In this document: in pieces, positions 1 through 59,773 of the stretch
Layout of the letters: each line of letters opens with the position of its first letter
How positions within the stretch are numbered: position 1 is the first letter of the stretch
NCBI RefSeq assembly: GCF_003790525.1
Contig: NZ_CP033635.1
Length of the DNA stretch: 64,000 nt
Source: Escherichia coli
Lineage (GTDB): Bacteria; Pseudomonadota; Gammaproteobacteria; Enterobacterales; Enterobacteriaceae
Reading direction: 5' to 3' (one strand)
Translations under genes and position numbers: made by a program
Notes under the pieces: generated by a model
Database searches by the model: none
What the model was told of the DNA's origin: nothing
What the model saw: only the letters and a program-made list of their open reading frames with translations

Positions 1-965
1 TCAAATTCAACGCGGCGAACTTCTCCATCCCAATTTTTCAGCATGTCAATTGCCGCACGGGCCATCTTATCGACAGGTTGTCGAACAGCAGTTAAAGAAG
101 GGACGTTGTAAACCGATTCTTGTGTTGCATTAAAGCAGACCAGCGCAACATCTTCAGGAACGCGCAGCCCATGTTCTGCCAGGGCGCGTAAACAACCGAG
201 AGCCTGTTGTTCATTCGTCGCAAACAGGGCGCGTGGCAGTTGGTTCTCAAGCATGCGTTTTGTCGCTTCGTAACCGCCGGCGCGGGTATAGTTGGTCGAA
301 AAAATCCATGAGGGATTGACCACTAACGATGAGGCTTCCAGCGCCTGCCGCCAACCCCGGATACGATCCTGAGTATTCAGCATTTCACGTGGGCCGCAGA
401 TGATGCCGATGTCGCGGTATCCGTGATCAATCAGATGTTGTGTTACCAGCATTGCCGCCAGTTGTTCATCAACCTGGATAACGCTGACGTTAAGTCCAGG
501 ATCCACACGATCGAGCATGACGCAGGGGGTACCGCTCTCCTGAATCAAATTGATATAAGGATGGCGATCAACACTGGTGTAGATCAGCCCGTCAACCTGA
601 CGGTGCAGCATATTATTAATGAGTTCACGTTCACGGCAGCTACTGTCGCCTGCGTCTCCCAGCAGGAGTACTTTGCCATCAGCAAAGGCTTCGTGCTGCA
701 GAGCATGAGCTATAGAAGCGATAAACGGGTTCGAGATGTCCGGCACGACTAGCCCGTAAGTTTGCGTACTCCCTGAAGCCAGCGCACGCGCGATGCCATT
801 GGGTCGATAACCGGTTTTCTTAATTGCCTGTAGTACACGTTGCCGAGTCGCTTCGGCAACGGGGCGCGGACCATTATTAATAACGTAACTAACGACAGCG
901 ACGGATGTCCCTGCTTCTTTTGCCACGTCAGAGCGTGTTACGCGTTGTGAATGTGATTGAGTCAC
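1..965 (-). CDS. LacI-family transcriptional regulator (3' end runs off the window start)
   Basis: Minus-strand frame from a GTG at 965..963 translates to MTQSHSQRVTRSDVAKEAGTSVAVVSYVINNGPRPVAEATRQRV..., a typical LacI-type N-terminal HTH followed by a periplasmic-binding-like sugar domain. No stop occurs before position 1, which is why it is absent from the ORF track. Confidence 0.6.
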   Translation of the reverse strand, partial: MTQSHSQRVTRSDVAKEAGTSVAVVSYVINNGPRPVAEATRQRVLQAIKKTGYRPNGIARALASGSTQTYGLVVPDISNPFIASIAHALQHEAFADGKVLLLGDAGDSSCRERELINNMLHRQVDGLIYTSVDRHPYINLIQESGTPCVMLDRVDPGLNVSVIQVDEQLAAMLVTQHLIDHGYRDIGIICGPREMLNTQDRIRGWRQALEASSLVVNPSWIFSTNYTRAGGYEATKRMLENQLPRALFATNEQQALGCLRALAEHGLRVPEDVALVCFNATQESVYNVPSLTAVRQPVDKMARAAIDMLKNWDGEVRRVEF

Positions 966-1069
966 GAAGCACCTACCTAATTGCGTTCAGAGTGATTTTT
1001 TCCAGACAGCATAAGGCGTTATGACCCAAAAATCTTTGGTAAAGAACGCGCATCTCACGTTCTCTGGCC

Positions 1070-2470
1070 TTAAATTGCATCCTCGGGTAAGTTGAGATCC
1101 CGCCCGCGAGTCTCTGGTGCAAAGAACGTGGTCACCAGTCCAATCGCGGCCATAAAGGCGAAATAGATAGCGATTGGCCACCAGTGTCCGTAAAACGAGA
1201 GTAGCGCAGAGGCGATAAGTGGCGCTGTCCCGCCAGACATAATGGAACCGAGCTCTTTTGCAAATGCCATTTTGGTATAACGATTAGTGACACCGAAAAG
1301 CTCAACGCCCCACGCAGCCTGAACACCAAAAATACCCAGTGAAGCAAGCCCCATCCCGGTAATGATCGTCGGGATAACAATCCACGGCTCACGGGAATCC
1401 AGCAGCATAAATGCTGGAAAGGCATACAGGATCAGTAACAGGCAGAACCAACGATAGATGATACGTCTACCGAATCTATCGGACAGCCAACCCGCCAGAG
1501 GAATAATGGCAAATCCCAGAACGGATGCAATAAGTACGGCTGCCGTGGGTACGGACTCATCTACCATTAGTACTTTAGCGACATAACCAATGATAAACCC
1601 CTGAGCGAGATAAGAAGGACCATTCTCACCTATGCGTAATCCGACCATAGTCCAGAAGGCACGGGTCCGTTTCCAGAAGCTACGAGTGTCATGTTGTTGT
1701 TGTGCTTTTCCCTCACGAAGAACCTTTTCTCGTTCAGCCTGCAGAAGGGCTTTTTGACGTTCAAAGACTGGTGTTTCGCGTATATGACGACGAATTAATA
1801 GAGCGGCAGCAGCAATAAGAATGCTACAAAGAAAAGGAATACGCCATCCCCAGTTTAATAAGTCATCCTTGTCCATTTGCAGGACGATGAGCCAAACCAG
1901 TGAAGCCAGTAATGTTCCGCTGTTCGACCCCAGACCAATAACAGATGAAACTAGTCCACGTCGTTTAACGGGAGCATATTCACCAAGCATCACAGTACCG
2001 CCTGAAAGCTCCGCGCCAGCTCCCAGCCCCTGAGAAAATCGAAGGATAACCAGACATATCGGTGCCCAGACGCCTATCTGGGCGTAACTGGGGATTAATC
2101 CTATTAGCATGGTCGACATGCCCATCAATCCAATAGTGATAACCATGACAATTTTCCGACCATGTTTATCGCCTATCCAGCCGAACAGTAATGCACCAAT
2201 AGGGCGGGCAATAAACCCAACAGAATAGGCGGCAAAGCTGGAAAGTAATGCTATGACGGGTGTCACCTCCGGAAAAAAGACATCGCCAAAGATAATACCT
2301 GCGGCAAGTCCGTACAGAGCAAAATCGGCATACTCCATTGTAGTGCCTAGCCAGCAGGAAAAGGTAGCTCTCCAAAACTCGCGACGTCCCTCGGGGGTTT
2401 CCAGACGCTCCTGAGCTGCCTGTTGGTTATCCACTAGGGGAACAGAGGATGATGGATGATGTGTGTTCAT
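1070..2470 (-). CDS. MFS metabolite:H+ symporter (MHS-type, ProP/KgtP/ShiA-like)
   Basis: 466-aa ORF with about 12 predicted hydrophobic segments, the GxxxDKxGRK motif (WIGDKHGRKIVM) after TM2 and a long charged central loop. Adjacent and co-oriented with the LacI-family gene. Confidence 0.8.
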   Translation of the reverse strand: MNTHHPSSSVPLVDNQQAAQERLETPEGRREFWRATFSCWLGTTMEYADFALYGLAAGIIFGDVFFPEVTPVIALLSSFAAYSVGFIARPIGALLFGWIGDKHGRKIVMVITIGLMGMSTMLIGLIPSYAQIGVWAPICLVILRFSQGLGAGAELSGGTVMLGEYAPVKRRGLVSSVIGLGSNSGTLLASLVWLIVLQMDKDDLLNWGWRIPFLCSILIAAAALLIRRHIRETPVFERQKALLQAEREKVLREGKAQQQHDTRSFWKRTRAFWTMVGLRIGENGPSYLAQGFIIGYVAKVLMVDESVPTAAVLIASVLGFAIIPLAGWLSDRFGRRIIYRWFCLLLILYAFPAFMLLDSREPWIVIPTIITGMGLASLGIFGVQAAWGVELFGVTNRYTKMAFAKELGSIMSGGTAPLIASALLSFYGHWWPIAIYFAFMAAIGLVTTFFAPETRGRDLNLPEDAI

Positions 2471-2897
2471 AAGAACTCCTTGATATTATCTGTCAGATAT
2501 ACATCACAGGTAGATATCTTTCTTAAATCTACTCATGTAGATATTGTGTTTTATTACATATAAATAAATCTACTCGCGTAGACAAACCAGTCAATGGAAG
2601 TAAAATCGTGATAGAGATCACCCATAAGGTGTAAGCGCAAAGCTGGCGTTGTCTGTATCCCCGCTCCTGCCGGGCTAATTTACGCTTAAAACATCAGCAA
2701 TACACCAGCGTATTCAGTAGCGACAAGCATGAGTCACACTCAAACTCCCGACCATCACCATCCTTGAAAGGTTACAGATCCTGATATACCTGTGTTTATA
2801 ATTACCCTACTGTATTTTCATCATGAAACTGAATCGCTACACAGAGCTGTTTATCTGCAGAGTACAGGCTGGATATGGTTTATTATTACCGTAAGGT

Positions 2898-4311
2898 GTC
2901 AACGACGGATGAAAAGTGGCTCTTCCGCAACCTGGGTGGAAGAAAATGGATGAAACTTTCTGGTGAATAAAGATCTAAGCTGTTTTAAGTTATGGGCAAC
3001 GCAATGCACTCTCTTAAGACACTTCTACAGTTACCTTGCGGATGGAGATGCAGTCGACAAATTATTAGCTCTGACGGTATAACCCTCCATCTCCACGGAA
3101 AACGCAAAACAGCACAAGTCCTGAATGCTTTAAGCGTAGCGACTCTGTTCATAGTTATCGTCGGCGCCGGATACAGCATCTACCCTGCTTAGGGCAGACG
3201 CTATGGCTTGTATTTTCCGTCCGCCACTGGTACTGCCGTAACCCGGCTTGTTCACGTAAAATTTTTGCCGGGTCGCTTGCCCCCTTCGCCGGTTCACTCC
3301 CAGCATTCTTCACAGGTGTTACAAAATTTACAACATCAACTGGGATTAATAGCCGGAGGTGAGGCCGGGAAACAGGCAGCAACGGCAGTGGGGCTCCGTT
3401 GCAGTGCTGATACTCTTCTTCGCAGGGTTATTAATACCCCGGAGACGAAACAGTCAGGCGCGCCTCATGTCGGTATTGATGAGTGGGCGTGGCATCGGGG
3501 CTACCATTACGGTACGTTAATCGTCAATCTTTATACTCACCGTCCCCTCGTCCTGCTTCCCGGTTGCGATCAGAGTACGCTGGCGACCTGGTTCAGAAAA
3601 TATCCGGAAATACAGGTTGTCTCACGTGACCGTGGCGGAGTCTATGCGACAGCAGCACGTGAAGGTGCACCTCAGGCCAGACAGATAGCTGATCGATGGC
3701 ACCTGCTAAAAAATATTGGCGATGCGCCTGAACGAATGATGTACAGACAGATGCCTCTGATACGTCTTGTTGCCAGTGGGTTGTCACCAAAGAAATCACC
3801 TGAGCCAGAACTGTCTGTGCCTGTAGCATCGCTCCGTCGTCCGGAACGCCTTAAACAGCAAACCCGCCAAAAATGGCATCAGCGTTGGACAGAGGTTATG
3901 GCACTACATAACAAGGGATGTGGGTTCAGGGAAATATCCCGTATTACAGACTTATCACGTGTGACAGACAGTCTCTGGGTGTGTTCAGGAACATTCCCTG
4001 AAATGTCAACCCGGCCTCCAGAGCGAGGACTTATGGACCCATGGAAGGAGTGGTTAAAAGAGCAACGAGAAAGTGGTAACTTCGGCGCGTGGCTGCGAGG
4101 ATGGAAGCTGATGCTGCGGCTATATGTGAGGCAATCAGCAGTCGCTGGAATAATGGGGGGTGTCGAAAGTCATGTAAATCGGCTAAAAATGCTGAAAGGC
4201 CAGATGTATGGTCGAGCCGGATTTGAACTACTCAGGCAGAGGGTCATGAGTCCACTGGCATGAAAATCTCCATCCAGGTTGCGGAAGAGCCACTTTTCAT
4301 CCGTCGTTGAC
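2898..4311 (+). mobile_element. Insertion sequence (ISL3-family-like), about 1.41 kb, with perfect 38-bp terminal inverted repeats
   Basis: gtcaacgacggatgaaaagtggctcttccgcaacctgg at 2898..2935 is exactly reverse-complemented at 4274..4311. A transposase-like reading frame fills the interior. Confidence 0.6.
2992..4263 (+). pseudogene. IS transposase interrupted by an in-frame TAG stop at 3190..3192
   Basis: Track ORFs 2992..3192 and 3208..4263 are in the same frame, separated only by an amber codon. The C-terminal part has DDE-type transposase character (DEWAWHRGYHYGTL... DRWHLLKN). Combined length of about 423 codons fits ISL3-family transposases. Confidence 0.5.
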
Positions 4312-5098
4312 AGCTTGGGGGGTAGTGCATCGGTACCTCTAGGTCAAAGGAGGTATTCATATCCATATTAACGACTTGAATATGTTGACAGTACTGATTC
4401 AGATTAACGAAAAACGACCGAGCTTCTCTACTACGCACCTCACCTATCCAGAGGATTGATGAGTATCCGCATCGGCTACGACGGTGCGTAACGATGAGCT
4501 TTGAACAGGGCAAACTCTTTCATGACCCGGCCTTGGCAGTACATCAATCAGACCCTGTGACCTCTATTTGCAACTGACGTTTGTCGATAGTATTGATGAT
4601 ATGCTAGTGCAGGGTAAGAAATTACGAAATATGTTTAATCGGCAAGATTTTGAGTAACGCCTCAACATGCTCAATGAGTCATGTGGTCTGATGAGCATAA
4701 GGCTTTAGCCAGCTGATATAATCCCGAACTATGCCGTAGTTAGGGCAAAGAATGCGGTAGACGGGTAGGCGTAACTGAACTGGAAATACCAGTATTGTTC
4801 ATTACGATAAGGTGCGAAGTAAAGCATCGTGAACGGCTTTAGCCTGTTTGCCACAAGAATAATGACCGTTTTCAATCGGTTTTAGGTGGATGATGAGGGG
4901 GATTTTACTCAGTAGGGACGACGTCAAAGCCTATCCAGAGATAAATGGAAAAGATAGTATTCGAAATTGAGAACGGTTGGGGTTGGTTATCGTTCTGTTT
5001 TAGCAACTAAACAATAACTCCCCAACCGTTATCATTTCCAGCACACGATAATCTGCAATGAACATTAAAAATTCACGGCGGCGGTCGCTTTCCTTAAT

Positions 5099-6061
5099 TT
5101 ACGTCTCCTCTTGGGAGTGGATAATATGGGTGCCTGTTTCGCCACGCAGTGCCGCGGACAGGCATTCAGGCGTGGTGATAATCACTCTTTTACCTCCACG
5201 TTCCAGGAACTCCAGACTGGCAAGAATCTTCGGTAACATACTCCCAGGCGGGAAGTGACCCTCCTGCATGTAACGGGCCATCGTTAGGACATCCACTGTA
5301 TCCAGTGCATGCTGGTTGGGTTTCCCAAAATGAATACTCACTTTTTCCACGCCGGTGGTGATCACCAGAATGTCGGCGTGAATTTCGCGAGCCAGTAGCG
5401 CGCTAGAGAGATCTTTGTCGATAACCGCGTCCACGCTTTGGTAATCCCCTGCGTCAGTACGCACCACCGGAATGCCACCGCCGCCCGCGCCAATCACCAC
5501 AAAGCCTTGCTGGATCAGAGTCTTAATGGCAGGTGCTTCGACAATACGTTTCGGTTCCGGCGAGGCGACCACGCGGCGATAGCCCCGTCCGGCATCTTCA
5601 ACAAAACGCCAGTCAGGGTTTGCCTTTTGTAGTTCATCACGCTGGTTTTCACTAAAGAATGCACCGATGGGCTTGGTGGGATGGACAAACCCCGGATCGT
5701 TTTTATCCACTTCCACCTGAGTCACCACGGTGACGGCTTTTTTCTCGCCGTGAGGCGCCAGCCGGTTGTTCAGCGCCTGCTGGATCAGATAGCCAATGCC
5801 GCCTTGCGTATCCGCCACACAGTTCGCCAGCGGCGTTAAGGGTAGCCCTTCGCGCTCGTGGGCTATCTCCGCGCGGCGTAAATCCAGACCGACCTGCGGC
5901 CCGTTGCCGTGGGTCAGCACAATGTCGTAATCGGAAGCCAGCATTTCCAGAACCGTATCGGCGACGGCCTTCACCGCCTCCGCCTGATGCTCAATCGACT
6001 GGCTGGCGTTATCTTTGATAATGCTGTTGCCACCAATGGCAACGACCACAAGTTCTTTCAT
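5099..6061 (-). CDS. Carbamate kinase (ArcC/YahI-like)
   Basis: 320 aa beginning MKELVVVAIGGNSI, with DIVLTHGNGPQVG and a GGGGIPV motif characteristic of the carbamate kinase / amino acid kinase fold. Last gene of the minus-strand operon. Confidence 0.8.
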   Translation of the reverse strand: MKELVVVAIGGNSIIKDNASQSIEHQAEAVKAVADTVLEMLASDYDIVLTHGNGPQVGLDLRRAEIAHEREGLPLTPLANCVADTQGGIGYLIQQALNNRLAPHGEKKAVTVVTQVEVDKNDPGFVHPTKPIGAFFSENQRDELQKANPDWRFVEDAGRGYRRVVASPEPKRIVEAPAIKTLIQQGFVVIGAGGGGIPVVRTDAGDYQSVDAVIDKDLSSALLAREIHADILVITTGVEKVSIHFGKPNQHALDTVDVLTMARYMQEGHFPPGSMLPKILASLEFLERGGKRVIITTPECLSAALRGETGTHIIHSQEET

Positions 6062-6087
6062 AGAATTATCTTCCGTTTGCAGGCTAT

Positions 6088-7638
6088 TCAGGTCGTTTTA
6101 GTCTCTTCCTGCTCAGACGCAGCCACTGTTTCACGGCTATCAATAACATGCTTGAGGGCAAACATAGCAAGCATCATCAGGTAGGCCACAACAAACACAA
6201 TCGAGCTGCCTTCCGCAAAGCCAACCGCTGGGGAGTGAATCACGCCAAACAGCGATAACAGTGCTCCAAAGGATGCAGCTATCGCCCCGCGCAGCGGCTT
6301 ATTCATAATGGCAAAGATCGCAATGCATCCCCACAGCATGCTGGCCAGCGGTGCACCGCTTCCCAGATGCATCAGTCCATCGTAATAGACGCCTTTGCTG
6401 TGCAACAGGTCGCTACCAAGTTTCTCAGCGGATGTTCCGGCTGCGCCCATCACGCTGTTAACGATGGTCAATGCCCAGTTGGCGACCCATGGGAACAGAC
6501 AGATGAAAATAACGGGAACCTCGACTTTAGGAGTTTCTCGCACCACCTGATTGGCGGTTACCACACCGATAAAAACCAGAATTGGCACTATAGCAGTCAT
6601 GGGAATAATGGCGAGCATAAACGCGCCCAACCCAAACAATGGCACCAGGAACATAGTGATGCCTGATGCGAGGGTATAGCAGATACTAGCGCCCATAGCT
6701 TTCCAGCCTGCATGCCCAACATATACGGTTACCGGGAACGGATTACCCAGCATGCAACCGAGCATGGAGGCAAAGCCGTTCGCCATCATGACCTTACGGG
6801 TGTTGTATTCATCACCAGCCGCGTGCGCACTTTCAATGTTCTCGAGGTCAAAAATGTAGTTAGCCAGGCCCAAAGGAACTGCAGAAGCCAGATATGGCAG
6901 AGCGTGCGGCAAACCTTGCAGGAAGCTCCTTACATGAATTTCCGGCGGGTTGAAGCCGAAGGAAGACATCGACGCTTTAATGTCTTCCGGGCTTTGTAAA
7001 CCGGATATCCACGCTAGGGACGTACCAGCAATCAGCAACAGCAAACCGGTAGGAATATGGGGAAAAATCGGCTTCTTACCGAACCAGTTAATGAAGATCA
7101 ATAACAGGACGATGAAAGAAACTGTCGGCGCTTCGAACGCTTGCAGCATCGGGTTCATTGCCAGCAGTAATAACCCCAGTCCGGACAGACAAGAAAGCAG
7201 CACTGTACGCGGGATCATCTTGCGGATAGTCTCACCCAGGAAGGAGCCACCGACCAGGATCAACGCTTCGACAAAGCACCACACCAATCCTATCTGAATA
7301 GCAAAGTTGGCATCTTTGGTTTGCTGATAAACCGGCATCAGCACCAGGAATGTCACGGTAAAGATTGAGGGTGCGCTCGGTCCAGACGGCAGCGCCGTTA
7401 CATCGCTACGACCGGTTTTCTTCACCATCTGTAGACCAAACCAGGAGTAGCAGACACTGGCCGCCAGCACTGCAAGACCAAAGGCAGGCGCAATGCGTCC
7501 ATAGACAATTTCAGTAGGGATTCCGACGACAAAAATTAGCAGACCCATCATTGTCAGCAGGTTAGTCAGATTGTTGGTCATCAGTCCAAAGTAAGCCGCC
7601 CAGTCACCACGTTTCCATTCTAGTTTTATGCTGTTCAT
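6088..7638 (-). CDS. Polytopic membrane permease (possibly NCS2/AzgA-like nucleobase-type transporter)
   Basis: 516 aa, highly hydrophobic with many predicted TM segments, embedded between the DUF1116 and carbamate kinase genes. Family assignment is tentative. Confidence 0.45.
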   Translation of the reverse strand: MNSIKLEWKRGDWAAYFGLMTNNLTNLLTMMGLLIFVVGIPTEIVYGRIAPAFGLAVLAASVCYSWFGLQMVKKTGRSDVTALPSGPSAPSIFTVTFLVLMPVYQQTKDANFAIQIGLVWCFVEALILVGGSFLGETIRKMIPRTVLLSCLSGLGLLLLAMNPMLQAFEAPTVSFIVLLLIFINWFGKKPIFPHIPTGLLLLIAGTSLAWISGLQSPEDIKASMSSFGFNPPEIHVRSFLQGLPHALPYLASAVPLGLANYIFDLENIESAHAAGDEYNTRKVMMANGFASMLGCMLGNPFPVTVYVGHAGWKAMGASICYTLASGITMFLVPLFGLGAFMLAIIPMTAIVPILVFIGVVTANQVVRETPKVEVPVIFICLFPWVANWALTIVNSVMGAAGTSAEKLGSDLLHSKGVYYDGLMHLGSGAPLASMLWGCIAIFAIMNKPLRGAIAASFGALLSLFGVIHSPAVGFAEGSSIVFVVAYLMMLAMFALKHVIDSRETVAASEQEETKTT

Positions 7639-7750
7639 GGAATCTCCTTAACAGGTTAAGCATCGTTTGCGATCATGGAGATCGCCCAGCCCTGAAGGTA
7701 AACAACGTTTTCCGCTACTGTGGGGCTAACTGCGTTAGCCCCGGTTATTG

Positions 7751-9169
7751 TTATTGGCAGTAGTGGTCACGCCAGTTGAGGATCGCCTTTTCAAAACAAG
7801 TGAACGGCGGGTGAACAATTCCTGCGCCGATCATGCCGATCCCTGCGTCTTTGTGCGCAATGGCTGTGTTAATTACCGGCAGAATGCCTGTACTGCCTAC
7901 ACGTGTAATATCGATAGCGGTCGGTACGCCCATAAAACCAAGCAGGGGAATGGTGACGTTGGGGTTTTCTCCGAGAGTGATTTCTCTCATTTTACGTGAG
8001 AAATCAATAGCTTCCTCAACTGTTCCGCCCACCAGTGACACAATAGCTGGTGCCGTCGCCATAGCGAAACCGCCAACGCCGTAGGTTTCGGTAATTGCAC
8101 TATCACCGATATCACGTCCGGAATCCTCTAGCTTATAGCCCGCAAACATCGGCCCAATCACCTGCTGCGCCGGACCGGTAAACCACTGGCCCGGCAAACC
8201 GCTAATACGAAGACCGAACTCAACACCATTGCGTGCCATCGTTGTCACCACGGTGCTGTATTCAATGCCGTGCGCAGCGTCCATTGCGGCTTTACACATT
8301 GCCATCCATGTTGGTCCTGAGAAGTAATCACTACTGAGGACAAACTCGAACACCTCACGCTGCTGCTCAACAGGGTAGCCAGTCTGAATAATCCACGGCG
8401 TCAGCGTCTGAATCAGCAGCGCCGTCCCGGCGTTGTTGCGGTTATGGCACTCATCGCCCATATGCAGCGCCTGCGCTAACATCAAGTGCAGATCGATTTC
8501 GCCCGCCAGCTTCATAGCATCGCGCAACATAGGTCCCAGTACATCTCGCATCCAGTTAAGACGCTCTATAACGCTCTGGTCGTTAGCGCCCATACGCAGG
8601 ATCTTTGCCATCTGCTCGCTCATATTGGTATATGCGCGGTTTCCATAGGTTTTGTTCTCGACGATGTGCATAAACATCGATGCAGACGTGACACCCGCCA
8701 TTGAGCCGACACAGTCATGTTCGTGGCACGGAGAGAAGATGATTTCACCTGAAGCAGCTAGTTCGGCGGCATCATCCAGATCTTTCGCCAGTCCTTCAAA
8801 TACCAGAGCCCCGGTTACTGCGCCCTTCATTGCGCCGCACATTTTTTCCCAGTGGATTGGCGGCCCGGCGTGAAGGATAGTGTTACGGGTCATACCCGGC
8901 ACGACGTTGATCGCCTGATCATAGCCAATTAGCACAGGATGCGACTGGATAATGCGTTCCAGCGCCAGCTGATTAGCAGCTGCAATTTTGTCTGCCAGTG
9001 GTGAAGCGGCAATGTCGTCCAGTGCCGTTACCACTTGTATGTTTCCTTGGCCTGGCGGTGTCCAGTCAAGTTGGGTTACCGGTACATTCTGCTTTTTCAT
9101 GTCATCGCTGAACATTTCGATACCGACATTAATAACGTTCAGCGGCTGATTAAACAGTGTCTGGCTCAT
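7751..9169 (-). CDS. DUF1116-family protein (YahG/YlbE/AllG-like, putative carbamoyltransferase subunit)
   Basis: 472 aa. Its start codon overlaps the upstream FdrA-like stop by one base (TGATG), indicating translational coupling. Same size and operon position as K-12 YahG. Confidence 0.7.
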   Translation of the reverse strand: MSQTLFNQPLNVINVGIEMFSDDMKKQNVPVTQLDWTPPGQGNIQVVTALDDIAASPLADKIAAANQLALERIIQSHPVLIGYDQAINVVPGMTRNTILHAGPPIHWEKMCGAMKGAVTGALVFEGLAKDLDDAAELAASGEIIFSPCHEHDCVGSMAGVTSASMFMHIVENKTYGNRAYTNMSEQMAKILRMGANDQSVIERLNWMRDVLGPMLRDAMKLAGEIDLHLMLAQALHMGDECHNRNNAGTALLIQTLTPWIIQTGYPVEQQREVFEFVLSSDYFSGPTWMAMCKAAMDAAHGIEYSTVVTTMARNGVEFGLRISGLPGQWFTGPAQQVIGPMFAGYKLEDSGRDIGDSAITETYGVGGFAMATAPAIVSLVGGTVEEAIDFSRKMREITLGENPNVTIPLLGFMGVPTAIDITRVGSTGILPVINTAIAHKDAGIGMIGAGIVHPPFTCFEKAILNWRDHYCQ

Positions 9170-19556: not shown

Positions 19557-19633
19557 CGACACTGCTCCTGAACGATAATTGCGTATATTCTGTAATTAAG
19601 ATAATTGCATATCTTCTGCAATTAAACAGAAAC

Positions 19634-19675
19634 ACCCTGCAGTCTATTGCTGCAGGGTTGTCTGTTATCTGTTTT
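19634..19675 (+). terminator. Rho-independent terminator downstream of the tia-like gene
   Basis: Perfect 9-bp stem accctgcag / ctgcagggt with a 7-nt loop, followed by a T-rich tract. Confidence 0.5.
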
Positions 19676-19737
19676 ACAGATAATTTCTGATTTTTATTAT
19701 CCTGTTCTCTTCATAATAATGTTGTCGATATACTCCG

Positions 19738-21240
19738 ATGAATATCAGAAAACTGTTTTGTCCGGGCGACACACCCCGGATTTTATTGTTTTTATTCTTT
19801 TTTGTTATTTCTGTGATAATCACAATTGCATGCGGATACACTGAGAAGAATGCCACAGGAAATGTGCTGCTTCTGTTTCTCCTTCTGCTCCTTGCACACA
19901 GAAATACCCTCACATCCATTACAACGCTGTTATTTCTGTTCTGTTGTGCACTGTATGCGCCTGCGGGTATGACGTACGGTAAAATCAACAACAGTTTTAT
20001 TGTCGCGTTGCTGCAGACCACGGCTGATGAGGCTGCAGAGTTTACCGGGATGATTCCTGTTTATCATTTTCTGGTCAGTGCCGCGATTCTGGTATTCATG
20101 GTGATTTTCTGGCGGACACACCACCGCGGTCACCGTAACTGGCTGGCACTGCTGCTGTTCGTATTATGCTCTGTAAACAGCTGGCCGTTGCGGATGGTTA
20201 AAGGAACTGTTGTGGGGACAACTGACACATTGCGTGAAATGCAACATTATAAACAACTGAGTCAGCACGGGGCTGACAACTGGAAAATCCTGCCGGGAAC
20301 ACCGTTATATGACACAATTGTTATTGTCACTGGTGAGAGTGTGCGCAGGGATTATATGTCGGTATATGGCTATCCCGTGCCAACCACGCCGTGGCTGAAT
20401 ACGGCTCCCGGTTTATTTATTGACGGCTATACATCGGCAGCAGCCAGTACCGTACCTTCCCTGAGCCGGACACTGATTTATGACTATGAGCAGAACCCTG
20501 ACTCCGGCAACAACGTGGTGGCGCTGGCAGCAAAAGCAGGATACAGCACATGGTGGATATCCAATCAGGGAAAGCTGGGGGAGCATGATACACGCATCTC
20601 TGTTATTGCTTCTGATGCGGAGCATACCGTTTTCCTCAAGAAAGGCAGCTTTGCTTCCCGTAAAACGGATGACATGTTGTTGTTACAGGAAACAGAACGT
20701 GCACTGGCGGATAAATCCTCTCCGAAGGTGATATTCCTGCACATGATTGGCTCTCATCCGAATCCGTGTGACCGACTTAACTCCTGGCCGAATCATTACC
20801 TGGAGCAGTATCCCCGAAAGGTTGCCTGTTACCTCGCCAGCATCAGTAAACTGGATAACTTTCTCGGTCAGCTTGATGGTATCCTTCGCCGGCATTCCCG
20901 TCATTTCGTCATGCTTTACTTTTCTGACCATGGGCTGTCGGTCAGCGACAGTGCTAATCCTGTTCATCATGATGGTCATGTGCAGGGAGGCTACAGCGTT
21001 CCCCTGATTATTACCGCCAGTGATATCACGTCTCATCAGTCCGTCAGCAGAAAAATCAGTGCCCGTCATTTCGCAGGTATTTTTCAGTGGCTGACCGGCA
21101 TTCGTACTGAAAATATACCGCCATTCAATCCGCTGACAGACGAAGATAATGAACCCGTTATGGTTTTTAACGGAGAGAGGAATGTACTGGCAGACAGTCT
21201 GAAACCACAGCCTCTGATTCTTCCGGTCAAGGGAAAATAA
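19738..21240 (+). CDS. Sulfatase-superfamily phosphoethanolamine transferase (EptA/YhbX-like membrane protein)
   Basis: 500 aa; hydrophobic N-terminal domain with several TM helices followed by a periplasmic sulfatase-like domain (VIVTGESVRRDYMSVYGY..., HMIGSHPNP..., LYFSDHG). Start codon is uncertain. Confidence 0.65.
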   Translation: MNIRKLFCPGDTPRILLFLFFFVISVIITIACGYTEKNATGNVLLLFLLLLLAHRNTLTSITTLLFLFCCALYAPAGMTYGKINNSFIVALLQTTADEAAEFTGMIPVYHFLVSAAILVFMVIFWRTHHRGHRNWLALLLFVLCSVNSWPLRMVKGTVVGTTDTLREMQHYKQLSQHGADNWKILPGTPLYDTIVIVTGESVRRDYMSVYGYPVPTTPWLNTAPGLFIDGYTSAAASTVPSLSRTLIYDYEQNPDSGNNVVALAAKAGYSTWWISNQGKLGEHDTRISVIASDAEHTVFLKKGSFASRKTDDMLLLQETERALADKSSPKVIFLHMIGSHPNPCDRLNSWPNHYLEQYPRKVACYLASISKLDNFLGQLDGILRRHSRHFVMLYFSDHGLSVSDSANPVHHDGHVQGGYSVPLIITASDITSHQSVSRKISARHFAGIFQWLTGIRTENIPPFNPLTDEDNEPVMVFNGERNVLADSLKPQPLILPVKGK

Positions 21241-21598
21241 GCGTAATGTTCATCACCAGATTATGTACGATGAGTTTTCCACTGTTTATAGCAATTATCT
21301 TGCTAATAACCAGACAGGAGTAACCAGACCAACCGAAAACACCGGGGAGGTGATTACCCGCTGGCAGAGGAAATCCGGTTTTTTTGATGTCAGCCATAAC
21401 GTGTTTGACAATAAAGCATTATGAAAGGGTGTTAATGAGTCCATGGGATAATTCATAAAAATAATTTACTGTGTTATCCTTTTCAAAAGAAATATTCAGA
21501 AGATAACCCCTGGCTGACAACCAGGGAAAGGGGACATTAACAGTATTATTATTGGTGGATAAATTATTACTTGTGTGCAGGATACACTAATGCAATAT

Positions 21599-22642
21599 CT
21601 ACTGATACTGTATGCCAGAATGTTTCCTGCCTGCTGCTGAAAACGGCAATATCCAGGGCCAGACATATTCACCATTCATATTTCTGCATTTCTGTACAAT
21701 TTTCTCAGAAAGCGTCTCATCAATTCTTTCACGCAACTTCTCCTGCTGTCTTAAAATACTTTCGTATATTTCGAAATCATCTTCCTGCATCAGCATTTCG
21801 GCGCATTTAATGATTTCTGCCCGTTCATGCAGCACAGAGGAATGGTTATAGAGCCAGTTTACAAACAGCAATGCTTCCGGATATTGTCCCCATAATGGTG
21901 AGTATGTTGTATAATAATCTTCGGCAGTATCCGGCCCTGCAGAATAGTTATGCCATACAGCAAGAGGAAATGGATGCAGATTTCCGCACAGCATTTCCGC
22001 GATGTAAGTATTTGCCGCAAATCCGCGACGAAATGCAGTTGCAGCTTTTACCAGTTCCCCATTAAGAAAATGCAGAAGACCAAGTTCATACCAGTAAGGT
22101 GAAAATTCATCAGCATGTTTTTTCAGTACACTGAAGGCTCGCTCATGATCACCTGTTCGTAACAGTTCTGAACCCAACAACCAGCGGGCACCCTGATTAT
22201 CTTCAGGATTGTATGCCAGTATTTTATCAGTAAGCATAACCGCATCCTGATGACGCTGTAAGTGCACATTTGCGAGAATTGCTGCATAAAGCGCGCGCAG
22301 ATAAGGCCGGTTTTCGGGATGCATCCAGATGATTTCACCACTGAAACTTTCCGGGATGAGACGATTACCGGCCGCCAGTCCTTTAAGCGCGGCGTTCAGA
22401 GCCTTACGCGGGGCATTCTGCTCCAGAAATGCATATGCCAGATGAGCGTGTATATCAATAAAGTCAGGCTCCCGTTGAGCAAGATGCCTGAGTTTGTTGA
22501 TGTAACTCGTCTCGCTGATTTCATCAGTGTCGTATGCATCAAGCACTTCTTCAAACTCCCCCAGTAATGGGCCAAACCAGGTATCCGGAAATACGAAATA
22601 ACCCTTGTTATCGTGCACTTCAAAGCATAATCTATCGTTCAT
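21599..22642 (-). CDS. Hypothetical protein, predicted helical-repeat (TPR-like) fold, no signal peptide
   Basis: 347-aa ORF with no family recognised by eye. Lies between the integrase and the PEtN transferase and is flanked by AT-rich intergenic DNA. Confidence 0.5.
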   Translation of the reverse strand: MNDRLCFEVHDNKGYFVFPDTWFGPLLGEFEEVLDAYDTDEISETSYINKLRHLAQREPDFIDIHAHLAYAFLEQNAPRKALNAALKGLAAGNRLIPESFSGEIIWMHPENRPYLRALYAAILANVHLQRHQDAVMLTDKILAYNPEDNQGARWLLGSELLRTGDHERAFSVLKKHADEFSPYWYELGLLHFLNGELVKAATAFRRGFAANTYIAEMLCGNLHPFPLAVWHNYSAGPDTAEDYYTTYSPLWGQYPEALLFVNWLYNHSSVLHERAEIIKCAEMLMQEDDFEIYESILRQQEKLRERIDETLSEKIVQKCRNMNGEYVWPWILPFSAAGRKHSGIQYQ

Positions 22643-23053
22643 TTTCTGAGCCTGTAAAACATGTGGTGATATAGTCTGAGAGCATAAAAGTTGAGATTCT
22701 GTGTATCAAGTCCTGTCTTGGCACCGAATGAATATTGCTTACGAAGCCCCTTCATGCTTTCCTTGAGAACAATAATTTTATCTTTATGTGAATCTCATTT
22801 TTTATAATGATGTCAGATGATTGAAATGCTAAATTATATCTGAATCAACTTTTCCTTTGCTAAAGGTATCGAAATAACTGCAAGATTGTATTTTGTAATT
22901 GCCAATTTAAAAATGTCAATTTGTTTTTAATTATGTTTTTGTAATAAGTTTGAAGACACAAAAAAATAATATAATAACAAAAATCCTCCAGCCTTGTAGG
23001 CCAGAGGATAAAATACTTAATTGAGGAAAACATCAGGGAAAAGTATTTCTGAC

Positions 23054-24238
23054 TTAACTTTCCCGGCTGGAGAGTGAATCAATGTAATCAGCGTACCATT
23101 GCATCATTTCACGGCGGCCATCGAGATACAGGGCATGATTATAGGTACCCCTGATGGAATTTTTATCCACATGAGCTAACTGCATTTCAATCCAGGCGGA
23201 GTTAAAGCCTTGTTCATGCAGAATTGTACTCATGGTGTGTCTGAAACCGTGCCCTGTGAGTCTTCCCTTATATCCAAGTAATTCAATTACTTGGTTAATG
23301 CTTTCCTTACTAATTGGTTTGCGGGGATCATTTCTACCGATAAAGACTAGGGGATGATGTTTTGAGATTGGTTCAAGCTGCTTAAATAGCATAATAACCT
23401 GCTCAGAGAGCGGCACAATATGAGGTCGCTTCATCTTCATTACTTCTGCCGGGATCTCCCACAATTTTGTCTCAAAATCGATATCTTCCCAGCGTGCAAA
23501 ACGCAGTTCTTGTGTTCGTACGCCGGTTAACATAATGATCTGAGTAGCTGTCTTAGTGATTATACTTCCGGTATAACCCGCCAGATCGTTGAGGAAGTGG
23601 GGAAGTTCATTAGCAGTAAGAAAGGGAAAATGTACTTTTTTCGGTGTAGCTAAAGCACTGGCAAGATCGGGGGCTGGGTTATAGTCTGCCCGGCCAGTAA
23701 CAATTGCATAGCGGAACACCTCACCACAGCGCTGGCGGACCTTGCGCATTTTCTCCAGAGCTCCACGTTTTTCCATTTTACGCAGTGCTTCCAGTAACTC
23801 CATTGGTTTGATTTCGGCAATAGGGCGCTTGCCAATGTAGGGAAAAATGTCTTTTTCAAAGGTATCAATGATTTCATCACGATAGCGTAATGACCACCGA
23901 TCGGCTTTTGACTGGTGCCATTCGCGAGCAATAGCCTCGAACGTATTTTTCAGACTTATTTGCTGCGCGATTTTTTCTTCCTTTTTTGCCTCCCCTGGAT
24001 CGCCTCCAGCAGCGAGGAGTTTCCTGGCTTCACTGCGTTTCTCGCGAGCATCGGCTAGCGTTACATCGGGGTATACGCCAATAGAAAGCATCTTTTCTTT
24101 ACCAGCAAAGCGGTACTTCATGCGCCAGTATTTAGAACCATTAGTGTTAATCAGTAGATACATACCGCCGCCATCAGCAAGCTTATAGGGTTTGTCTTTG
24201 GGTTTTGCGGTTTTCACTTTGATATCGGTTAATGCCAT
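23054..24238 (-). CDS. P4-type (tyrosine recombinase) integrase next to tRNA-Sec
   Basis: 394 aa; N-terminus MALTDIKVKTAKPKDKPYKLADGGGMYLLINTNGSKYWRMKYRFAGKEKMLSIGVYPDVTLADAREKR is the classic P4/CP4-57 integrase N-terminal domain; C-terminal catalytic region has GHGFRHT and LAH..........Y motifs. Confidence 0.9.
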   Translation of the reverse strand: MALTDIKVKTAKPKDKPYKLADGGGMYLLINTNGSKYWRMKYRFAGKEKMLSIGVYPDVTLADAREKRSEARKLLAAGGDPGEAKKEEKIAQQISLKNTFEAIAREWHQSKADRWSLRYRDEIIDTFEKDIFPYIGKRPIAEIKPMELLEALRKMEKRGALEKMRKVRQRCGEVFRYAIVTGRADYNPAPDLASALATPKKVHFPFLTANELPHFLNDLAGYTGSIITKTATQIIMLTGVRTQELRFARWEDIDFETKLWEIPAEVMKMKRPHIVPLSEQVIMLFKQLEPISKHHPLVFIGRNDPRKPISKESINQVIELLGYKGRLTGHGFRHTMSTILHEQGFNSAWIEMQLAHVDKNSIRGTYNHALYLDGRREMMQWYADYIDSLSSRES

Positions 24239-24537
24239 GACATCCTCCGGCTTTTGATGAATTCATGTTCCTGAGGGGGATTTCTGCCAGTAACTAACCT
24301 GATACCCCCAATACACCCCTTGTATAACAAAGATGTTGTTAAAAGCCGTTGTTATGTATCACATTTTTCCTATTATGGGGGTGCTTGTATTTCAATAGGA
24401 AATAACACCCCCTAAAGTACCCCCAAAAGAAACTTGATACGGGGTGAAGTAGGTTGACCTCAGGATACAAATAAATACTGATATACAAGGGATTAGAAGA
24501 GATTTATTGACATTGGGAGAGTTCAGAAGAGGTAAAC

Positions 24538-24632
24538 TGGCGGAAGATCACAGGAGTCGAACCTGCCCGGGACCGCTGGCGGCCCCAACTGGATTTGAAG
24601 TCCAGCCGCCTCACCGGAGACGACGATCTTCC
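24538..24632 (-). tRNA. selC: tRNA-Sec (selenocysteine, selC)
   Basis: Reverse complement of 24538..24632 matches the 95-nt E. coli selC sequence (GGAAGATCGTCGTCTCCGGTGAGGCGGCTGGACTTCAAATCCAGTTGGGGCCGCCAGCGGTCCCGGGCAGGTTCGACTCCTGTGATCTTCCGCCA) as recalled. Confidence 0.9.
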
Positions 24633-24924: not shown

Positions 24925-26307
24925 ATGAAGAGTGAAGTGTTGTCCGTTAAAGAGAAAATTGGTTATGGCATGGGAGACGCCGCCAGCCACATTATTTTCG
25001 ATAACGTAATGTTATATATGATGTTCTTTTATACCGATATTTTTGGCATTCCTGCCGGATTTGTCGGAACCATGTTTTTGGTCGCTCGTGCACTGGATGC
25101 GATTTCCGATCCTTGCATGGGGTTGTTGGCCGATCGAACGCGCTCTCGCTGGGGTAAATTTCGTCCGTGGGTACTGTTTGGCGCACTGCCATTTGGGATC
25201 GTCTGTGTACTGGCCTATAGCACGCCAGATCTCAGTATGAACGGAAAAATGATTTATGCAGCAATTACTTACACCCTACTTACCTTACTTTATACCATCG
25301 TTAATATCCCTTACTGCGCATTGGGTGGTGTAATCACCAATGACCCGACTCAGCGTATCTCGCTGCAATCCTGGCGTTTTGTGCTGGCGACTGCGGGAGG
25401 CATGCTCTCTACTGTTCTGATGATGCCGCTGGTTAATTTAATTGGTGGTGATAATAAACCACTCGGTTTCCAGGGCGGTATCGCGGTCCTTTCCGTGGTG
25501 GCATTCATGATGCTGGCATTTTGTTTCTTCACCACTAAAGAACGCGTTGAAGCACCACCTACAACGACGTCTATGAGGGAAGATTTACGTGATATCTGGC
25601 AAAACGACCAGTGGCGTATTGTCGGTTTACTAACCATTTTCAATATTCTGGCGGTATGCGTACGCGGCGGGGCGATGATGTATTACGTCACATGGATTTT
25701 GGGTACGCCGGAAGTGTTTGTCGCTTTTCTTACCACTTATTGCGTGGGTAACCTGATTGGTTCCGCACTGGCGAAACCGCTGACCGACTGGAAATGTAAA
25801 GTCACTATCTTCTGGTGGACGAACGCCCTGCTGGCAGTGATTAGCCTCGCGATGTTCTTTGTTCCTATGCAGGCCAGCATCACCATGTTTGTCTTCATCT
25901 TCGTGATTGGTGTGTTGCATCAACTGGTGACACCTATCCAGTGGGTAATGATGTCCGATACCGTCGACTACGGCGAGTGGTGTAATGGTAAACGCCTGAC
26001 CGGGATCAGTTTTGCTGGCACGCTGTTTGTGCTCAAACTGGGGTTGGCCTTCGGCGGCGCTCTTATCGGCTGGATGCTGGCTTATGGCGGATATGATGCG
26101 GCAGAAAAAGCGCAGAACAGCGCCACGATTAGCATCATTATCGCGCTATTCACGATTGTTCCGGCGATCTGTTATTTGCTGAGCGCGATTATCGCTAAAC
26201 GCTACTACTCACTCACGACGCACAATCTGAAAACCGTTATGGAACAGCTGGCCCAGGGCAAACGCCGTTGCCAGCAACAATTCACCTCTCAAGAAGTGCA
26301 GAACTAA
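24925..26307 (+). CDS. yicJ: GPH-family (glycoside-pentoside-hexuronide) MFS symporter YicJ
   Basis: Start chosen at MKSEVLSVKEKIGYGMGDAASH (460 aa), matching K-12 YicJ; the track ORF extends 19 codons further upstream. Confidence 0.85.
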   Translation: MKSEVLSVKEKIGYGMGDAASHIIFDNVMLYMMFFYTDIFGIPAGFVGTMFLVARALDAISDPCMGLLADRTRSRWGKFRPWVLFGALPFGIVCVLAYSTPDLSMNGKMIYAAITYTLLTLLYTIVNIPYCALGGVITNDPTQRISLQSWRFVLATAGGMLSTVLMMPLVNLIGGDNKPLGFQGGIAVLSVVAFMMLAFCFFTTKERVEAPPTTTSMREDLRDIWQNDQWRIVGLLTIFNILAVCVRGGAMMYYVTWILGTPEVFVAFLTTYCVGNLIGSALAKPLTDWKCKVTIFWWTNALLAVISLAMFFVPMQASITMFVFIFVIGVLHQLVTPIQWVMMSDTVDYGEWCNGKRLTGISFAGTLFVLKLGLAFGGALIGWMLAYGGYDAAEKAQNSATISIIIALFTIVPAICYLLSAIIAKRYYSLTTHNLKTVMEQLAQGKRRCQQQFTSQEVQN

Positions 26308-26316
26308 GGAACGGCA

Positions 26317-28635: not shown

Positions 28636-28929
28636 TCTATTGAAGAATGCCGGATACGAATGGTTTTGTGTCGTATCCGGTAAATAATCTCACATCTGGT
28701 AATAAATATTTCTTCCATCGTATTTGCGAGCATGATCACGATTATTCATCACGAAAATGTGATCTGTGCTGAAAAATATCCCTTAACCGCCTTGCTTTGT
28801 TTTATCACTGTCCGGATTACGGACATATTTTAGTATTGTTGTGAAATTATTCTGCTTTATATTTACCCTCAGAGATGGCAACTGAAGCTCTTCCATATGG
28901 GGCTTCTTAATCTGTGATAAGGGTAAAAA

Positions 28930-30483: not shown

Positions 30484-30509
30484 TGTCAGAATTTTATGAG
30501 GTATGACGA

Positions 30510-30980
30510 ATGGACATAACAAAAATCCTGAATACGAATCGCGTTATTTTAGATATGCAAGCGACGAATAAAGCGGAGGCGATTGAAGAATTAACTAATC
30601 TTCTCAAAAAAGATGGTGCGATCGATTGTCGGGAAACCTTTATTAAAGATGTCTGGCAGCGCGAAGCGGAAGGCTCGACTGGTTTTGAAAATCATATTGC
30701 GATCCCGCATGGTAAATCTTCTGCGGTAATTAATACTACGCTGGCAATTGGCCGTACCCGCCAGGATATTCCCTGGGAAACGCTGGATGGCAGTAGCGTG
30801 CGCTGTATTATTTTATTTGCGGTACGTCTTGAAGATCAAAATACCACCCATATCCGTTTACTTTCCCAGGTCGCGGGCGCGCTGGCGGATGATGACATCA
30901 TAGAACAATTGTTAGTTGAGACGAGTCCGCAAAAAATCATTGATCTCTTTAGTCAGTATGCACAATCCGATGTCTGCTAA
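30510..30980 (+). CDS. PTS EIIA component (fructose/mannitol type-2 family)
   Basis: 156 aa with ENHIAIPHGKS active-site histidine region. Confidence 0.75.
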   Translation: MDITKILNTNRVILDMQATNKAEAIEELTNLLKKDGAIDCRETFIKDVWQREAEGSTGFENHIAIPHGKSSAVINTTLAIGRTRQDIPWETLDGSSVRCIILFAVRLEDQNTTHIRLLSQVAGALADDDIIEQLLVETSPQKIIDLFSQYAQSDVC

Positions 30981-30997
30981 ATAACAGGGAGTATGTC

Positions 30998-31312
30998 ATG
31001 AATATTGTCTGTGTTGCCGCCTGTACGGCGGGTATTGCTCATACCTATATTGCTCGTGAAAAGTTAATCAAAGGAGCAAAAGCTCTGGGCCATACCATTA
31101 AAGTTGAAACCCAGGGAACCATTGGTACAGAAAATGAATTACAGGCGGCAGATATCTCTGCTGCTGACGTCGTGATTCTTGCTGTAGATGTGAAAATAAA
31201 AGGAGAAGAACGCTTCACCAATAAACGTATTGTGCGAGTAAAGACAGAGATCGTCATTAAATCGCCCGTTCAATTTCTTGAAAAGGTCGAAAAATCACTG
31301 GGAAACAAATGA
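30998..31312 (+). CDS. PTS EIIB component (fructose-like)
   Basis: 104 aa; N-terminal active-site cysteine context MNIVCVAACTAGIAHTYIA. Confidence 0.75.
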   Translation: MNIVCVAACTAGIAHTYIAREKLIKGAKALGHTIKVETQGTIGTENELQAADISAADVVILAVDVKIKGEERFTNKRIVRVKTEIVIKSPVQFLEKVEKSLGNK

Positions 31313-31336
31313 TCCTTATACTGGAGGGATCTTAAT

Positions 31337-32428: not shown

Positions 32429-32439
32429 CCGGAGGCCCT

Positions 32440-33291: not shown

Positions 33292-33371
33292 TTCATTTTC
33301 TGTCATGGCCTTTATGCCAGTGCAATAACGCACCGGCAGGGCGGACTACACGCTGAAACTGGAGATTTAAC

Positions 33372-34232: not shown

Positions 34233-34279
34233 GCCAGAAGGGCGGGGCAACCCGCCTTTTACGCAACAAGGAACGAGAT

Positions 34280-35873: not shown

Positions 35874-35882
35874 TAACGGGGA

Positions 35883-35918
35883 ACGCTAGCGCTGATATCC
35901 GCTAGCGTCCTTATTTTT
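35883..35918. terminator. Bidirectional hairpin between convergent lyxose-isomerase-like gene and yicH
   Basis: Perfect 9-bp stem acgctagcg / cgctagcgt with an 8-nt loop, followed by a T-rich tract. Confidence 0.5.
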
Positions 35919-59761: not shown

Positions 59762-59773
59762 GGCGGTAGCGTG
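59762..59773 (+). promoter_or_regulatory. ops element (GGCGGTAGCGTG) within a JUMPstart-like leader of the waaQ operon
   Basis: Exact 12-nt ops motif on the coding strand about 50 nt upstream of the waaQ start, in the waaA-waaQ divergent intergenic region. Confidence 0.7.

Follow-up and report, generated by a model that had tools for sequence, protein, structure and literature searches.

What kind of element occupies the selC locus of this Escherichia coli genome, and by what route did it come to lie there? The initial annotation of the window (the whole stretch of 64,000 nucleotides analyzed, contig NZ_CP033635.1) had proposed an island integrated in a tRNA gene and running past the window start, and all testable points of that proposal were supported. 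We read positions 1..24537 as the selC-proximal 24.5 kb of a mosaic island of ~60 kb with a P4/CP4-type integrase, its size extrapolated from a near-identical island in E. coli TUM9803, and would give this reading a probability of about 0.88. Features are collected in Table 1; the cargo genes first listed were all found where they had been placed, and the cargo functions given below are predictions from sequence.

Table 1 Features of the island part of the window and its selC junction, ordered from the window start. Strand is given as + or −; a point marks a feature for which no strand is assigned. PDB, Protein Data Bank.
Feature	Position	Strand	Evidence
LacI-family regulator (truncated by window start) and MFS metabolite/H+ symporter	1..2470	−	
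ISL3-family element, transposase frameshifted	2893..4316	.	transpos_ISL3, 188 bits
yahD-E-F-G / permease / yahI-like operon	5099..12215	−	K-12 Yah protein identities
YahB-like LysR regulator	12603..13532	+	85% to K-12 YahB; 39% to AllS
IS3-family transposase remnant	14218..14849	−	NCBIfam; PGAP pseudogene in TUM9803
PhoX alkaline phosphatase	15520..17499	+	PDB 3zwu PhoX, E=1.7e-167
Iron ABC transporter permease gene remnant	17596..18043	+	PGAP annotation of identical TUM9803 DNA
IS3-family transposase remnant, module junction	17957..18372	+	NCBIfam transpos_IS3, C-terminal part only
Tia/Hek-like outer membrane beta-barrel protein, 246 aa	18816..19556	+	Pfam OMP_b-brl
Sulfatase-domain phosphoethanolamine (PEtN) transferase, 500 aa, 1503 bp	19738..21240	+	Pfam Sulfatase 9e-37, EptA_B_N
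ShiA-like TPR protein, 347 aa	21599..22642	−	90%-identity cluster including Shigella flexneri proteins
P4/CP4-type tyrosine integrase, intact, 394 aa	23054..24238	−	Pfam Arm-DNA-bind_3, Phage_int_M, Phage_integrase
21-nt motif TTTGGGGGTACTTTAGGGGGT, just inside island end	24407..24427	−	Both TUM9803 island ends
24-nt att core TTCGACTCCTGTGATCTTCCGCCA, selC 3' end and proximal island boundary	24538..24561	−	
selC (tRNA-Sec, anticodon UCA)	24538..24632	−	ARAGORN, sole tRNA found, tRNA-SeC; Rfam RF01852, 83.8 bits

ARAGORN and Rfam agree on the tRNA-Sec gene at the position and strand first assigned to it. This gene is the integration target of the island: it is intact, accessory DNA starts at the base directly after its 3' end, the integrase reading frame lies 300 nt further on (which bears out the proposed integrase-tRNA linkage), and only accessory DNA is present between that point and the window start. 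Within the window, which covers just the selC-proximal part of the island, the att core TTCGACTCCTGTGATCTTCCGCCA occurs in one copy only, because the far end of the island is off-window. Both the 24-bp repeat of selC islands and the 21-nt motif of AGI-3 and GIselC17584/1 are known (PMC6174562); the latter, TTTGGGGGTACTTTAGGGGGT, stands beside every selC integrase locus examined and is a candidate arm-type binding site of the integrase. The empty site of K-12 reads selC-yicT-setC, and in genomes with the same YicJ allele selC is empty or has other occupants. The statement that no K-12 neighbors of selC are seen holds for the 3' side, where setC, yicL, and nlpA are missing from the window, but not for the 5' side, where yicJ and yicI are present at 24925-28635.

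The far boundary, and with it the distal end in the source genome, does lie beyond the window, as had been stated; a twin of the island is present in TUM9803 (NZ_CP135671.1, 45003-105899), where it is annotated in RefSeq and for which we found no descriptive paper. The island part of the window differs from the twin at 15 positions in 24.5 kb (99.94% identity), and both gene order and selC junction are unchanged between the two; only TUM9803 has an added IS3 element, which interrupts the PEtN transferase gene at its 3' end. At the far end of the twin, a second copy of the 24-nt selC 3' end directly adjoins K-12-type yicT/setC, and since sequence identical to that downstream of K-12 selC follows this repeat, the island there measures 60.9 kb. 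Its distal part encodes an AlpA-family protein, which matched only excisionase-type families in a PHROG scan, and a conserved block of a YeeP-like GTPase, an antirestriction protein, a JAB/RadC protein, and a YeeU/CbtA toxin-antitoxin pair; the distal backbone also occurs in a pheU island of strain 144.

Beyond selC the likeness to TUM9803 drops: 100 differences fall in the next 4.0 kb of core (~2.5%), and later core is 97.1-97.2% identical. In a three-way alignment the window goes with TUM9803 on the island side (left) of the selC 3' end and with SMS-3-5 on the other; the change-over is confined to selC plus 90 bp (185 bp containing the att core). Over the core flank, the window matches SMS-3-5 at 100% identity, as it does, among the matches listed, at least 15 other genomes, with at least 6 more at ≥99.9%. 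Near-identity of the island to that of TUM9803, together with the identity drop at selC, therefore points to recent horizontal arrival, most likely by site-specific integration. It could be objected that the island traveled within a large piece of chromosome (Hfr-type conjugation or transduction) and entered by homologous recombination with one crossover at selC by chance, as the island has no annotated genes for conjugation or packaging, many IS remnants are scattered across it, and the closest core relatives have another element at selC, so that homology would start only at selC and bias the crossover to that point. A homologous crossover could, however, occur anywhere across many kb of flank, and the switch from 99.94% to ~97.5% is confined to 185 bp with the att core; the integrase is intact, as are both att repeats in the TUM9803 twin, and we consider fragment transfer improbable.

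Under site-specific integration, the attP core of the island, which has the same sequence as the final 24 nt of selC, would have recombined with the chromosomal tRNA gene by means of the integrase, regenerating selC at one end and leaving the 24-nt direct repeat at the other. Excision would be driven by an AlpA-family excisionase, for which the distal part of the twin has a gene, if the island is still competent for it. No type IV secretion or relaxase genes are annotated in the window or the TUM9803 island, and without conjugation genes movement between cells would therefore need a helper (plasmid, phage, or recombination). The IS remnants and pseudogenes are signs of decay, and the island may thus have lost its mobility. 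The recipient lineage normally holds a P4-like satellite at selC; SMS-3-5 and 23CRST013 have such an element there instead of the island (primase-helicase, psu, sid, and delta genes). This satellite is defense-carrying, and its integrase is 71% identical to that of the island. At the recipient selC the satellite may have been replaced, or the island may have inserted in tandem beside it.

Among NCBIfam models the island integrase scores best against PRK09692 (317 bits, where the curated cut-off is 434), and of 5,426 complete genomes 1,518 have its junction with selC. A P4-type integrase with 71% identity to that of the SMS-3-5 satellite could be taken to mean that the element is itself a prophage, a phage satellite, or an integrative conjugative element; we give this next to no credence, as capsid, tail, primase, psu/sid/delta, relaxase, and type IV secretion genes are absent from the window and the TUM9803 island, and no PHROG family matched the ShiA-like TPR protein (two proteins scanned). 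CP4-44, CP4-57, and PAI I-V of strain 536 likewise combine an AlpA-family regulator with a P4-type integrase next to a tRNA gene. By annotation, CP4-type elements and the strain 536 islands share the block of YeeP-like GTPase, antirestriction, JAB/RadC, and YeeU/CbtA genes, but have other target tRNA genes and other cargo. The selC site is common to the LEE, which has a related integrase, and O157:H7 genomes match the int-selC junction at ~89.5% nucleotide identity; type III secretion, intimin, and Tir genes are lacking among the window reading frames and in the TUM9803 island, and identity with the LEE was rejected.

Next to the integrase, the gene first listed as a hypothetical protein is present, but its product has an identity: cluster membership and a position adjoining int, as in SHI-2, GIselC, and SE-PAI, suggest the ShiA-like TPR protein of SHI-2/SE-PAI. 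The predicted PEtN transferase matches CptA/EptA weakly and under the cut-offs, and its gene has the length of the 1503-bp gene of GIselC17584/1. The Tia/Hek-like protein aligns at 62% identity and 100% coverage with one that carries the name invasion outer membrane protein Tia (P0029); at only this level of identity it is therefore taken as a paralogue of Tia, whose own gene belongs to the 46-kb tia-PAI of ETEC H10407. This proximal module occurs in 96 of the 5,426 complete genomes.

From 24632 down to 18816 the window follows the order tRNA / integrase / shiA / sulfatase orf / tia given for SE-PAI (Michelacci 2013, as summarized in PMC7371111). According to the same summary, SE-PAI is an 8-kb island at tRNA-Phe (pheV), whereas the present island lies at selC and the module is the head of ~60 kb. 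No subAB2 operon, as in SE-PAI, was found beyond the tia-like gene in lists of reading frames of ≥80 aa; past this gene there is only an IS3-remnant reading frame (17957-18328) and then PhoX. Closer in site are SHI-2 (Shigella flexneri), AGI-3/EPI-I (APEC BEN2908), and GIselC17584/1 (STEC O91:H21), all of which lie, like the present island, at selC, have the 24-nt repeat and the 21-nt GGGGGT motif pair, as in the TUM9803 twin, and have int followed by shiA as the first genes; GIselC17584/1 also has the 1503-bp PEtN transferase gene. SHI-2 shares only this int-shiA head, and its aerobactin iuc/iut genes were found neither in the window nor among the annotated genes of the TUM9803 island. In AGI-3, the fos locus comprises the MFS transporter FosT, two GH32 hydrolases, a fructokinase, and the LacI-type regulator FosR (PMC3325963); no GH32 or fructokinase genes are annotated in the present island (AGI-3, AY857617, compared by description), and unlike in the fos locus, its MFS protein is of the metabolite/H+ symporter family and lies by a nucleoside hydrolase. 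Hemolysin/adhesin and restriction-modification genes of GIselC were not seen in the window, and we found no report of PhoX or a yah-like operon for SHI-2, AGI-3, or GIselC17584/1.

Away from the head, the cargo falls into further blocks. Matches to other genomes stop at 18372 and 18796, on the far side of which lies PhoX, with a twin-arginine signal (SRRRLLQAG) and a GC-rich gene (GC 0.563, GC3 0.668); a further module junction lies near 14898, as judged from match breakpoints. The ISL3 element has inverted arms of 48 nt (96% complementary). The MFS transporter at 1070-2470 matches TIGR00883 at 386 bits, under the cut-off, and with the LacI-family regulator forms part of a nucleoside-hydrolase/MgtC block that extends off-window (TUM9803 annotation). 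The changes in GC content between blocks first noted are real: phoX compares with 0.442 for 18373-23053, the island part as a whole with 0.481, core with 0.50-0.51, and 1-kb windows range from 0.38 to 0.57.

The carbamate-kinase operon was likewise found, at 5099-13532 with its regulator, but is better named a yah-cluster xenologue. Its products are an ankyrin protein, a DUF2877 protein, an FdrA-like protein, a DUF1116 protein, a 516-aa permease, and a carbamate kinase; judged by its proteins it is a copy, though a divergent one, of yahB-yahI in K-12, with identities to K-12 YahD, E, F, G, and I of 72, 53, 83, 90, and 93%, respectively, and the order LysR/ankyrin/DUF2877/FdrA-like/DUF1116/carbamate kinase is syntenic. 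It differs from the K-12 cluster in having the permease in place of the small yahH and in lacking yahJ. The permease has a UraA-type fold and, though highly conserved, no Pfam family. AllFGH is an oxamic transcarbamylase and AllK a catabolic carbamate kinase (PMC11326118, PMC9843812), and identity of the island proteins to AllF, AllG, and AllK of this allFGH-allK oxamate pathway is only 38-46%. The operon probably encodes a carbamoyl-transfer and carbamate-kinase pathway with a nucleobase-type permease, and may represent an uncharacterized ATP-yielding, nucleobase-type catabolic pathway. The block is also found on 69 plasmids at ≥99% identity, one of which, when examined, was a conjugative IncF plasmid; the operon may be spreading via IncF plasmids and islands, mostly in poultry-associated strains.

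The cargo would have been assembled by IS-mediated accretion of four blocks: the SE-PAI/SHI-2-type block of int, ShiA-like, PEtN transferase, and Tia-like outer membrane protein genes; the PhoX phosphatase block; the yah-like operon with its LysR regulator; and the LacI / MFS / nucleoside-hydrolase uptake block. The cargo had been called unusual; the combination is indeed rare, the exact arrangement being found in 1 of the 5,426 complete genomes, yet every module has been seen elsewhere before. The K-12 core-genome counterpart of the yah-like cluster might suggest ancestral E. coli DNA, deleted from K-12 and others. Such an origin is scarcely conceivable given an arrangement in a single genome, patchy composition, the same blocks at pheU and on plasmids, and a near-identical island in a strain whose core is ~2.5-2.9% divergent; the break in identity at selC contradicts it, as do empty sites that are precise and bounded by the tRNA 3' end.

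More tentatively, and with the odds rather against it, this ~60-kb non-conjugative selC island could still be active, having very recently moved intact between distant lineages and taken a site normally held by a P4-like satellite; if true, pathogenicity-type islands and phage satellites would be competing for a single att site at selC, or exchanging it. Current understanding is unchanged by the island, which is an ordinary E. coli genomic island, recently acquired and built from modules known in other islands and plasmids. It provides a further documented example of how selC islands are assembled, with a conserved head of int, ShiA, PEtN transferase, and Tia genes to which blocks are joined by IS elements, these blocks also circulating on plasmids (at least one of them conjugative IncF) and in pheU islands. 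Identity falls sharply at the tRNA gene, which leaves a clean natural record of recent transfer of an island between lineages and could be used for studying the movement of non-conjugative islands.

From the sequence alone, the initial annotation had described a mosaic island of at least 24.6 kb, headed by tRNA-Sec and a P4-type integrase on its 3' side and running past the start of the window. Both genes were recovered (see table), all cargo genes it had named were found in place, and its interpretation holds. tRNA-Sec is the single tRNA gene detected in the window by ARAGORN, and Rfam, run over the entire window, returned nothing besides this gene and one JUMPstart element. With selC on the minus strand, lower coordinates are on its 3' side; the integrase is the first ORF there, and its top NCBIfam match is PRK09692 (317 bits, under the curated cut-off). 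The K-12 neighbors of selC, which had been reported as missing, are indeed absent from the 3' side; on the 5' side they are present in the window as yicJ and yicI. The proposed shifts in base composition between blocks were borne out, with a GC content of 0.563 for phoX (GC3 0.668), 0.442 for 18373-23053, 0.481 for the island part, and 0.50-0.51 for the core.

Features of the selC region of the window and, in order, of the distal part of the TUM9803 island
Feature	Position	Strand	Evidence or content
tRNA-Sec (selC)	24538..24632	-	ARAGORN; Rfam 83.8 bits
P4/CP4-type integrase, 394 aa	23054..24238	-	Domains Arm-DNA-bind_3, Phage_int_M, Phage_integrase
21-nt GGGGGT-rich motif	24407-24427	-	Also at both TUM9803 island ends and next to each selC integrase locus retrieved
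Module D	18373/18796-24537		int, TPR protein, sulfatase-domain PEtN transferase, outer membrane protein
Module C	about 14.9-18.4 kb		PhoX
Module B	4317 to about 14.9 kb		yah-like cluster
Permease, 516 aa	6088-7638	-	Membrane protein within the yah-like operon
Module A	1-2892		End of LacI/MFS/nucleoside-hydrolase block
yicI-yicH block, 7.25 kb	28659-35912	+	Between yicI and yicH
dinD-yicC junction	~50410		Directly joined
JUMPstart element	59735-59773	+	Rfam RF01707, 55 bits
TUM9803 distal part, 1st			Nucleoside hydrolase and MgtC
TUM9803 distal part, 2nd			TRAP transporter genes, glycosyltransferase genes, YadA-like adhesin
TUM9803 distal part, 3rd			PTS/transketolase block
TUM9803 distal part, 4th			AlpA-family gene (Pfam Phage_AlpA 2.6e-10; PHROG excisionase families)
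TUM9803 distal part, 5th			Usual CP4-type block: GTPase, antirestriction protein, JAB protein, YeeU/CbtA toxin-antitoxin pair

Window positions 1-24700 were compared by megablast with 5,426 complete E. coli genomes and were matched over their whole length in one, TUM9803 (NZ_CP135671.1), at 99.9% identity. In this genome the accessory DNA runs on for ~36 kb past the matched stretch and terminates where the final 24 nt of selC (TTCGACTCCTGTGATCTTCCGCCA) recur in an exact second copy; past this repeat follows sequence identical to that downstream of selC in K-12, with the yicT/rhuM fragment and then setC. The TUM9803 island is thus a precise 60.9-kb insertion in a K-12-type site. The distal direct repeat of the selC 3' end, which the initial annotation had anticipated, is found in this twin island, and the window itself holds a single copy of the 24-mer, as expected with the far end off-window. 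Internal att remnants, the sign of tandem islands, were absent from the window at up to three mismatches. The same 24-bp repeat is described for selC islands, together with paired 21-nt GGGGGT-rich repeats just inside each end (PMC6174562).

Between the window and TUM9803, 15 differences were counted across 1-24537 and 100 over the next 4.0 kb of core (~2.5%); the remaining core common to both is 97.1-97.2% identical. The 25-kb core flank is 100% identical in SMS-3-5 and 15 other listed genomes, with six further genomes at 99.9% or more. In a three-way alignment the window tracks TUM9803 as far as the selC 3' end, and from selC on it tracks SMS-3-5; the first SNP specific to TUM9803 is found 90 bp past the tRNA gene, and the identity break is confined to 185 bp that contain the att core. 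Recent site-specific integration best accounts for a near-identical island in two chromosomes ~2.5-2.9% apart, with a break this narrow around the att core. The main rival is a homologous crossover, for which the position of the break at selC would be a matter of chance. Twelve of the 15 island differences are bunched at 14001-16500, a stretch that covers an IS3 remnant and the beginning of phoX; this points to a small patch of recombination or a hypervariable spot.

The integrase with its selC junction occurs in 1,518 of the 5,426 genomes (28%); these include O157:H7, with 89.5% identity at the junction. Module D was found in 96 of the 5,426, among them O26 STEC strain 97-3250, which has an integrase protein identical to that of the window. 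The order tRNA/integrase/shiA/sulfatase orf/tia of the SE-PAI (PMC7371111) is shared by the window, with subAB2 absent; in SHI-2 and GIselC17584/1, shiA likewise lies immediately after int (PMC6174562). The TPR protein gave no match in a PHROG search, and its 90%-identity cluster includes Shigella flexneri proteins. The outer membrane protein is an OMP_b-brl beta-barrel with full-length 62% identity to a protein named Tia. The PEtN transferase gene is uninterrupted in the window (500 aa); in TUM9803 a 1.3-kb IS3-family insertion at the site corresponding to 21195-21201 cuts its last codons. In module C, PhoX carries a twin-arginine signal, matches PDB 3zwu (E=1.7e-167), and has IS3 remnants and a dead ABC permease gene as its flanking sequences.

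For the carbamate-kinase cluster of module B, a copy of allFGH-allK was considered and rejected, identity being just 38-46% and YlbF matching a short motif only. Judged by sequence, its true counterpart is the yah cluster: it is a divergent copy of K-12 yahB, yahD-E-F-G, and yahI with synteny kept (amino-acid identity to YahB/D/E/F/G/I 85, 72, 53, 83, 90, and 93%, respectively). AllFGH is an oxamic transcarbamylase and AllK a catabolic carbamate kinase (PMC11326118, PMC9843812); by analogy, the yah-like cluster would probably split a carbamoyl compound and make ATP from carbamoyl phosphate. Where the K-12 cluster has the small yahH alone, that of the window has a 516-aa permease. Searches of NCBIfam, Pfam, and PDB sequences with this permease gave no match; its family extends from E. 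coli to Bacillus and Brevibacillus (62-88% identity), and its AlphaFold model (pLDDT 79) matches solely UraA/SLC23/SLC26/AzgA-type 7+7 TM transporters, at a TM-score of ~0.45 and 10-16% identity. The best-matching plasmids carry module B and most of the ISL3 element at 99.5-99.6% identity, and at least 80% of this stretch is present on 69 plasmids; of these, one was examined, a conjugative IncF plasmid of a chicken isolate. For the LacI/MFS pair of module A, an assignment to aec-35/36 of AGI-3 was considered and rejected: AGI-3 has the fos locus, which encodes GH32 enzymes, as its sugar cargo (PMC3325963), and none are annotated here.

Strain 144 also has the backbone from module B outward, within an island at the tRNA-Phe adjoining dsbD and with a Dnd/Dpt defense block where the window has PhoX; strain 2020N21-246 has this backbone too, with a type I RM block.

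In the core, the yicI-yicH block is present in SMS-3-5 and not in TUM9803; it encodes a BglG-type antiterminator, PTS fructose-type IIA/IIB/IIC, two aldolases, a ROK kinase, and a lyxose/mannose isomerase, and presumably resembles the ExPEC frz operon. At the dinD-yicC junction TUM9803 has a ~21-kb integrase-bounded insertion (positions 18845-39791 of its locus L004) with genes for a DUF927 primase-like protein, an Icd-like protein, and several hypothetical proteins of very large size; this insertion may be a satellite with defense cargo. The JUMPstart element is ordinary; its counterpart position in SMS-3-5 is rfaQ/waaG.

In place of the island, SMS-3-5 (L005:1644-12243) and 23CRST013 (L024:482-11071), whose core flank is 100% identical to that of the window, carry at selC an 11-kb P4-like satellite encoding an integrase (71% identical to that of the window), a SIR2-family protein (906 aa), psu, delta, sid, an Icd-like protein, and a primase. 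Across the ten places returned with the exact YicJ protein, selC is empty or holds other integrase-headed insertions, and the island is absent from all ten. On the setC side, just past yicS, type III secretion translocon-type genes (SycD/LcrH chaperone, YopB/SseC and IpaC-like proteins) were seen at L024:16030-19201 and at ~50-5130 of six other selC-region loci (L014-L017, L020, L022). The island brings known modules together in a new combination and belongs to a very well-known kind of element; its one mildly notable feature is the clean evidence of recent inter-lineage transfer into a site where, in the recipient lineage, a phage satellite usually sits.
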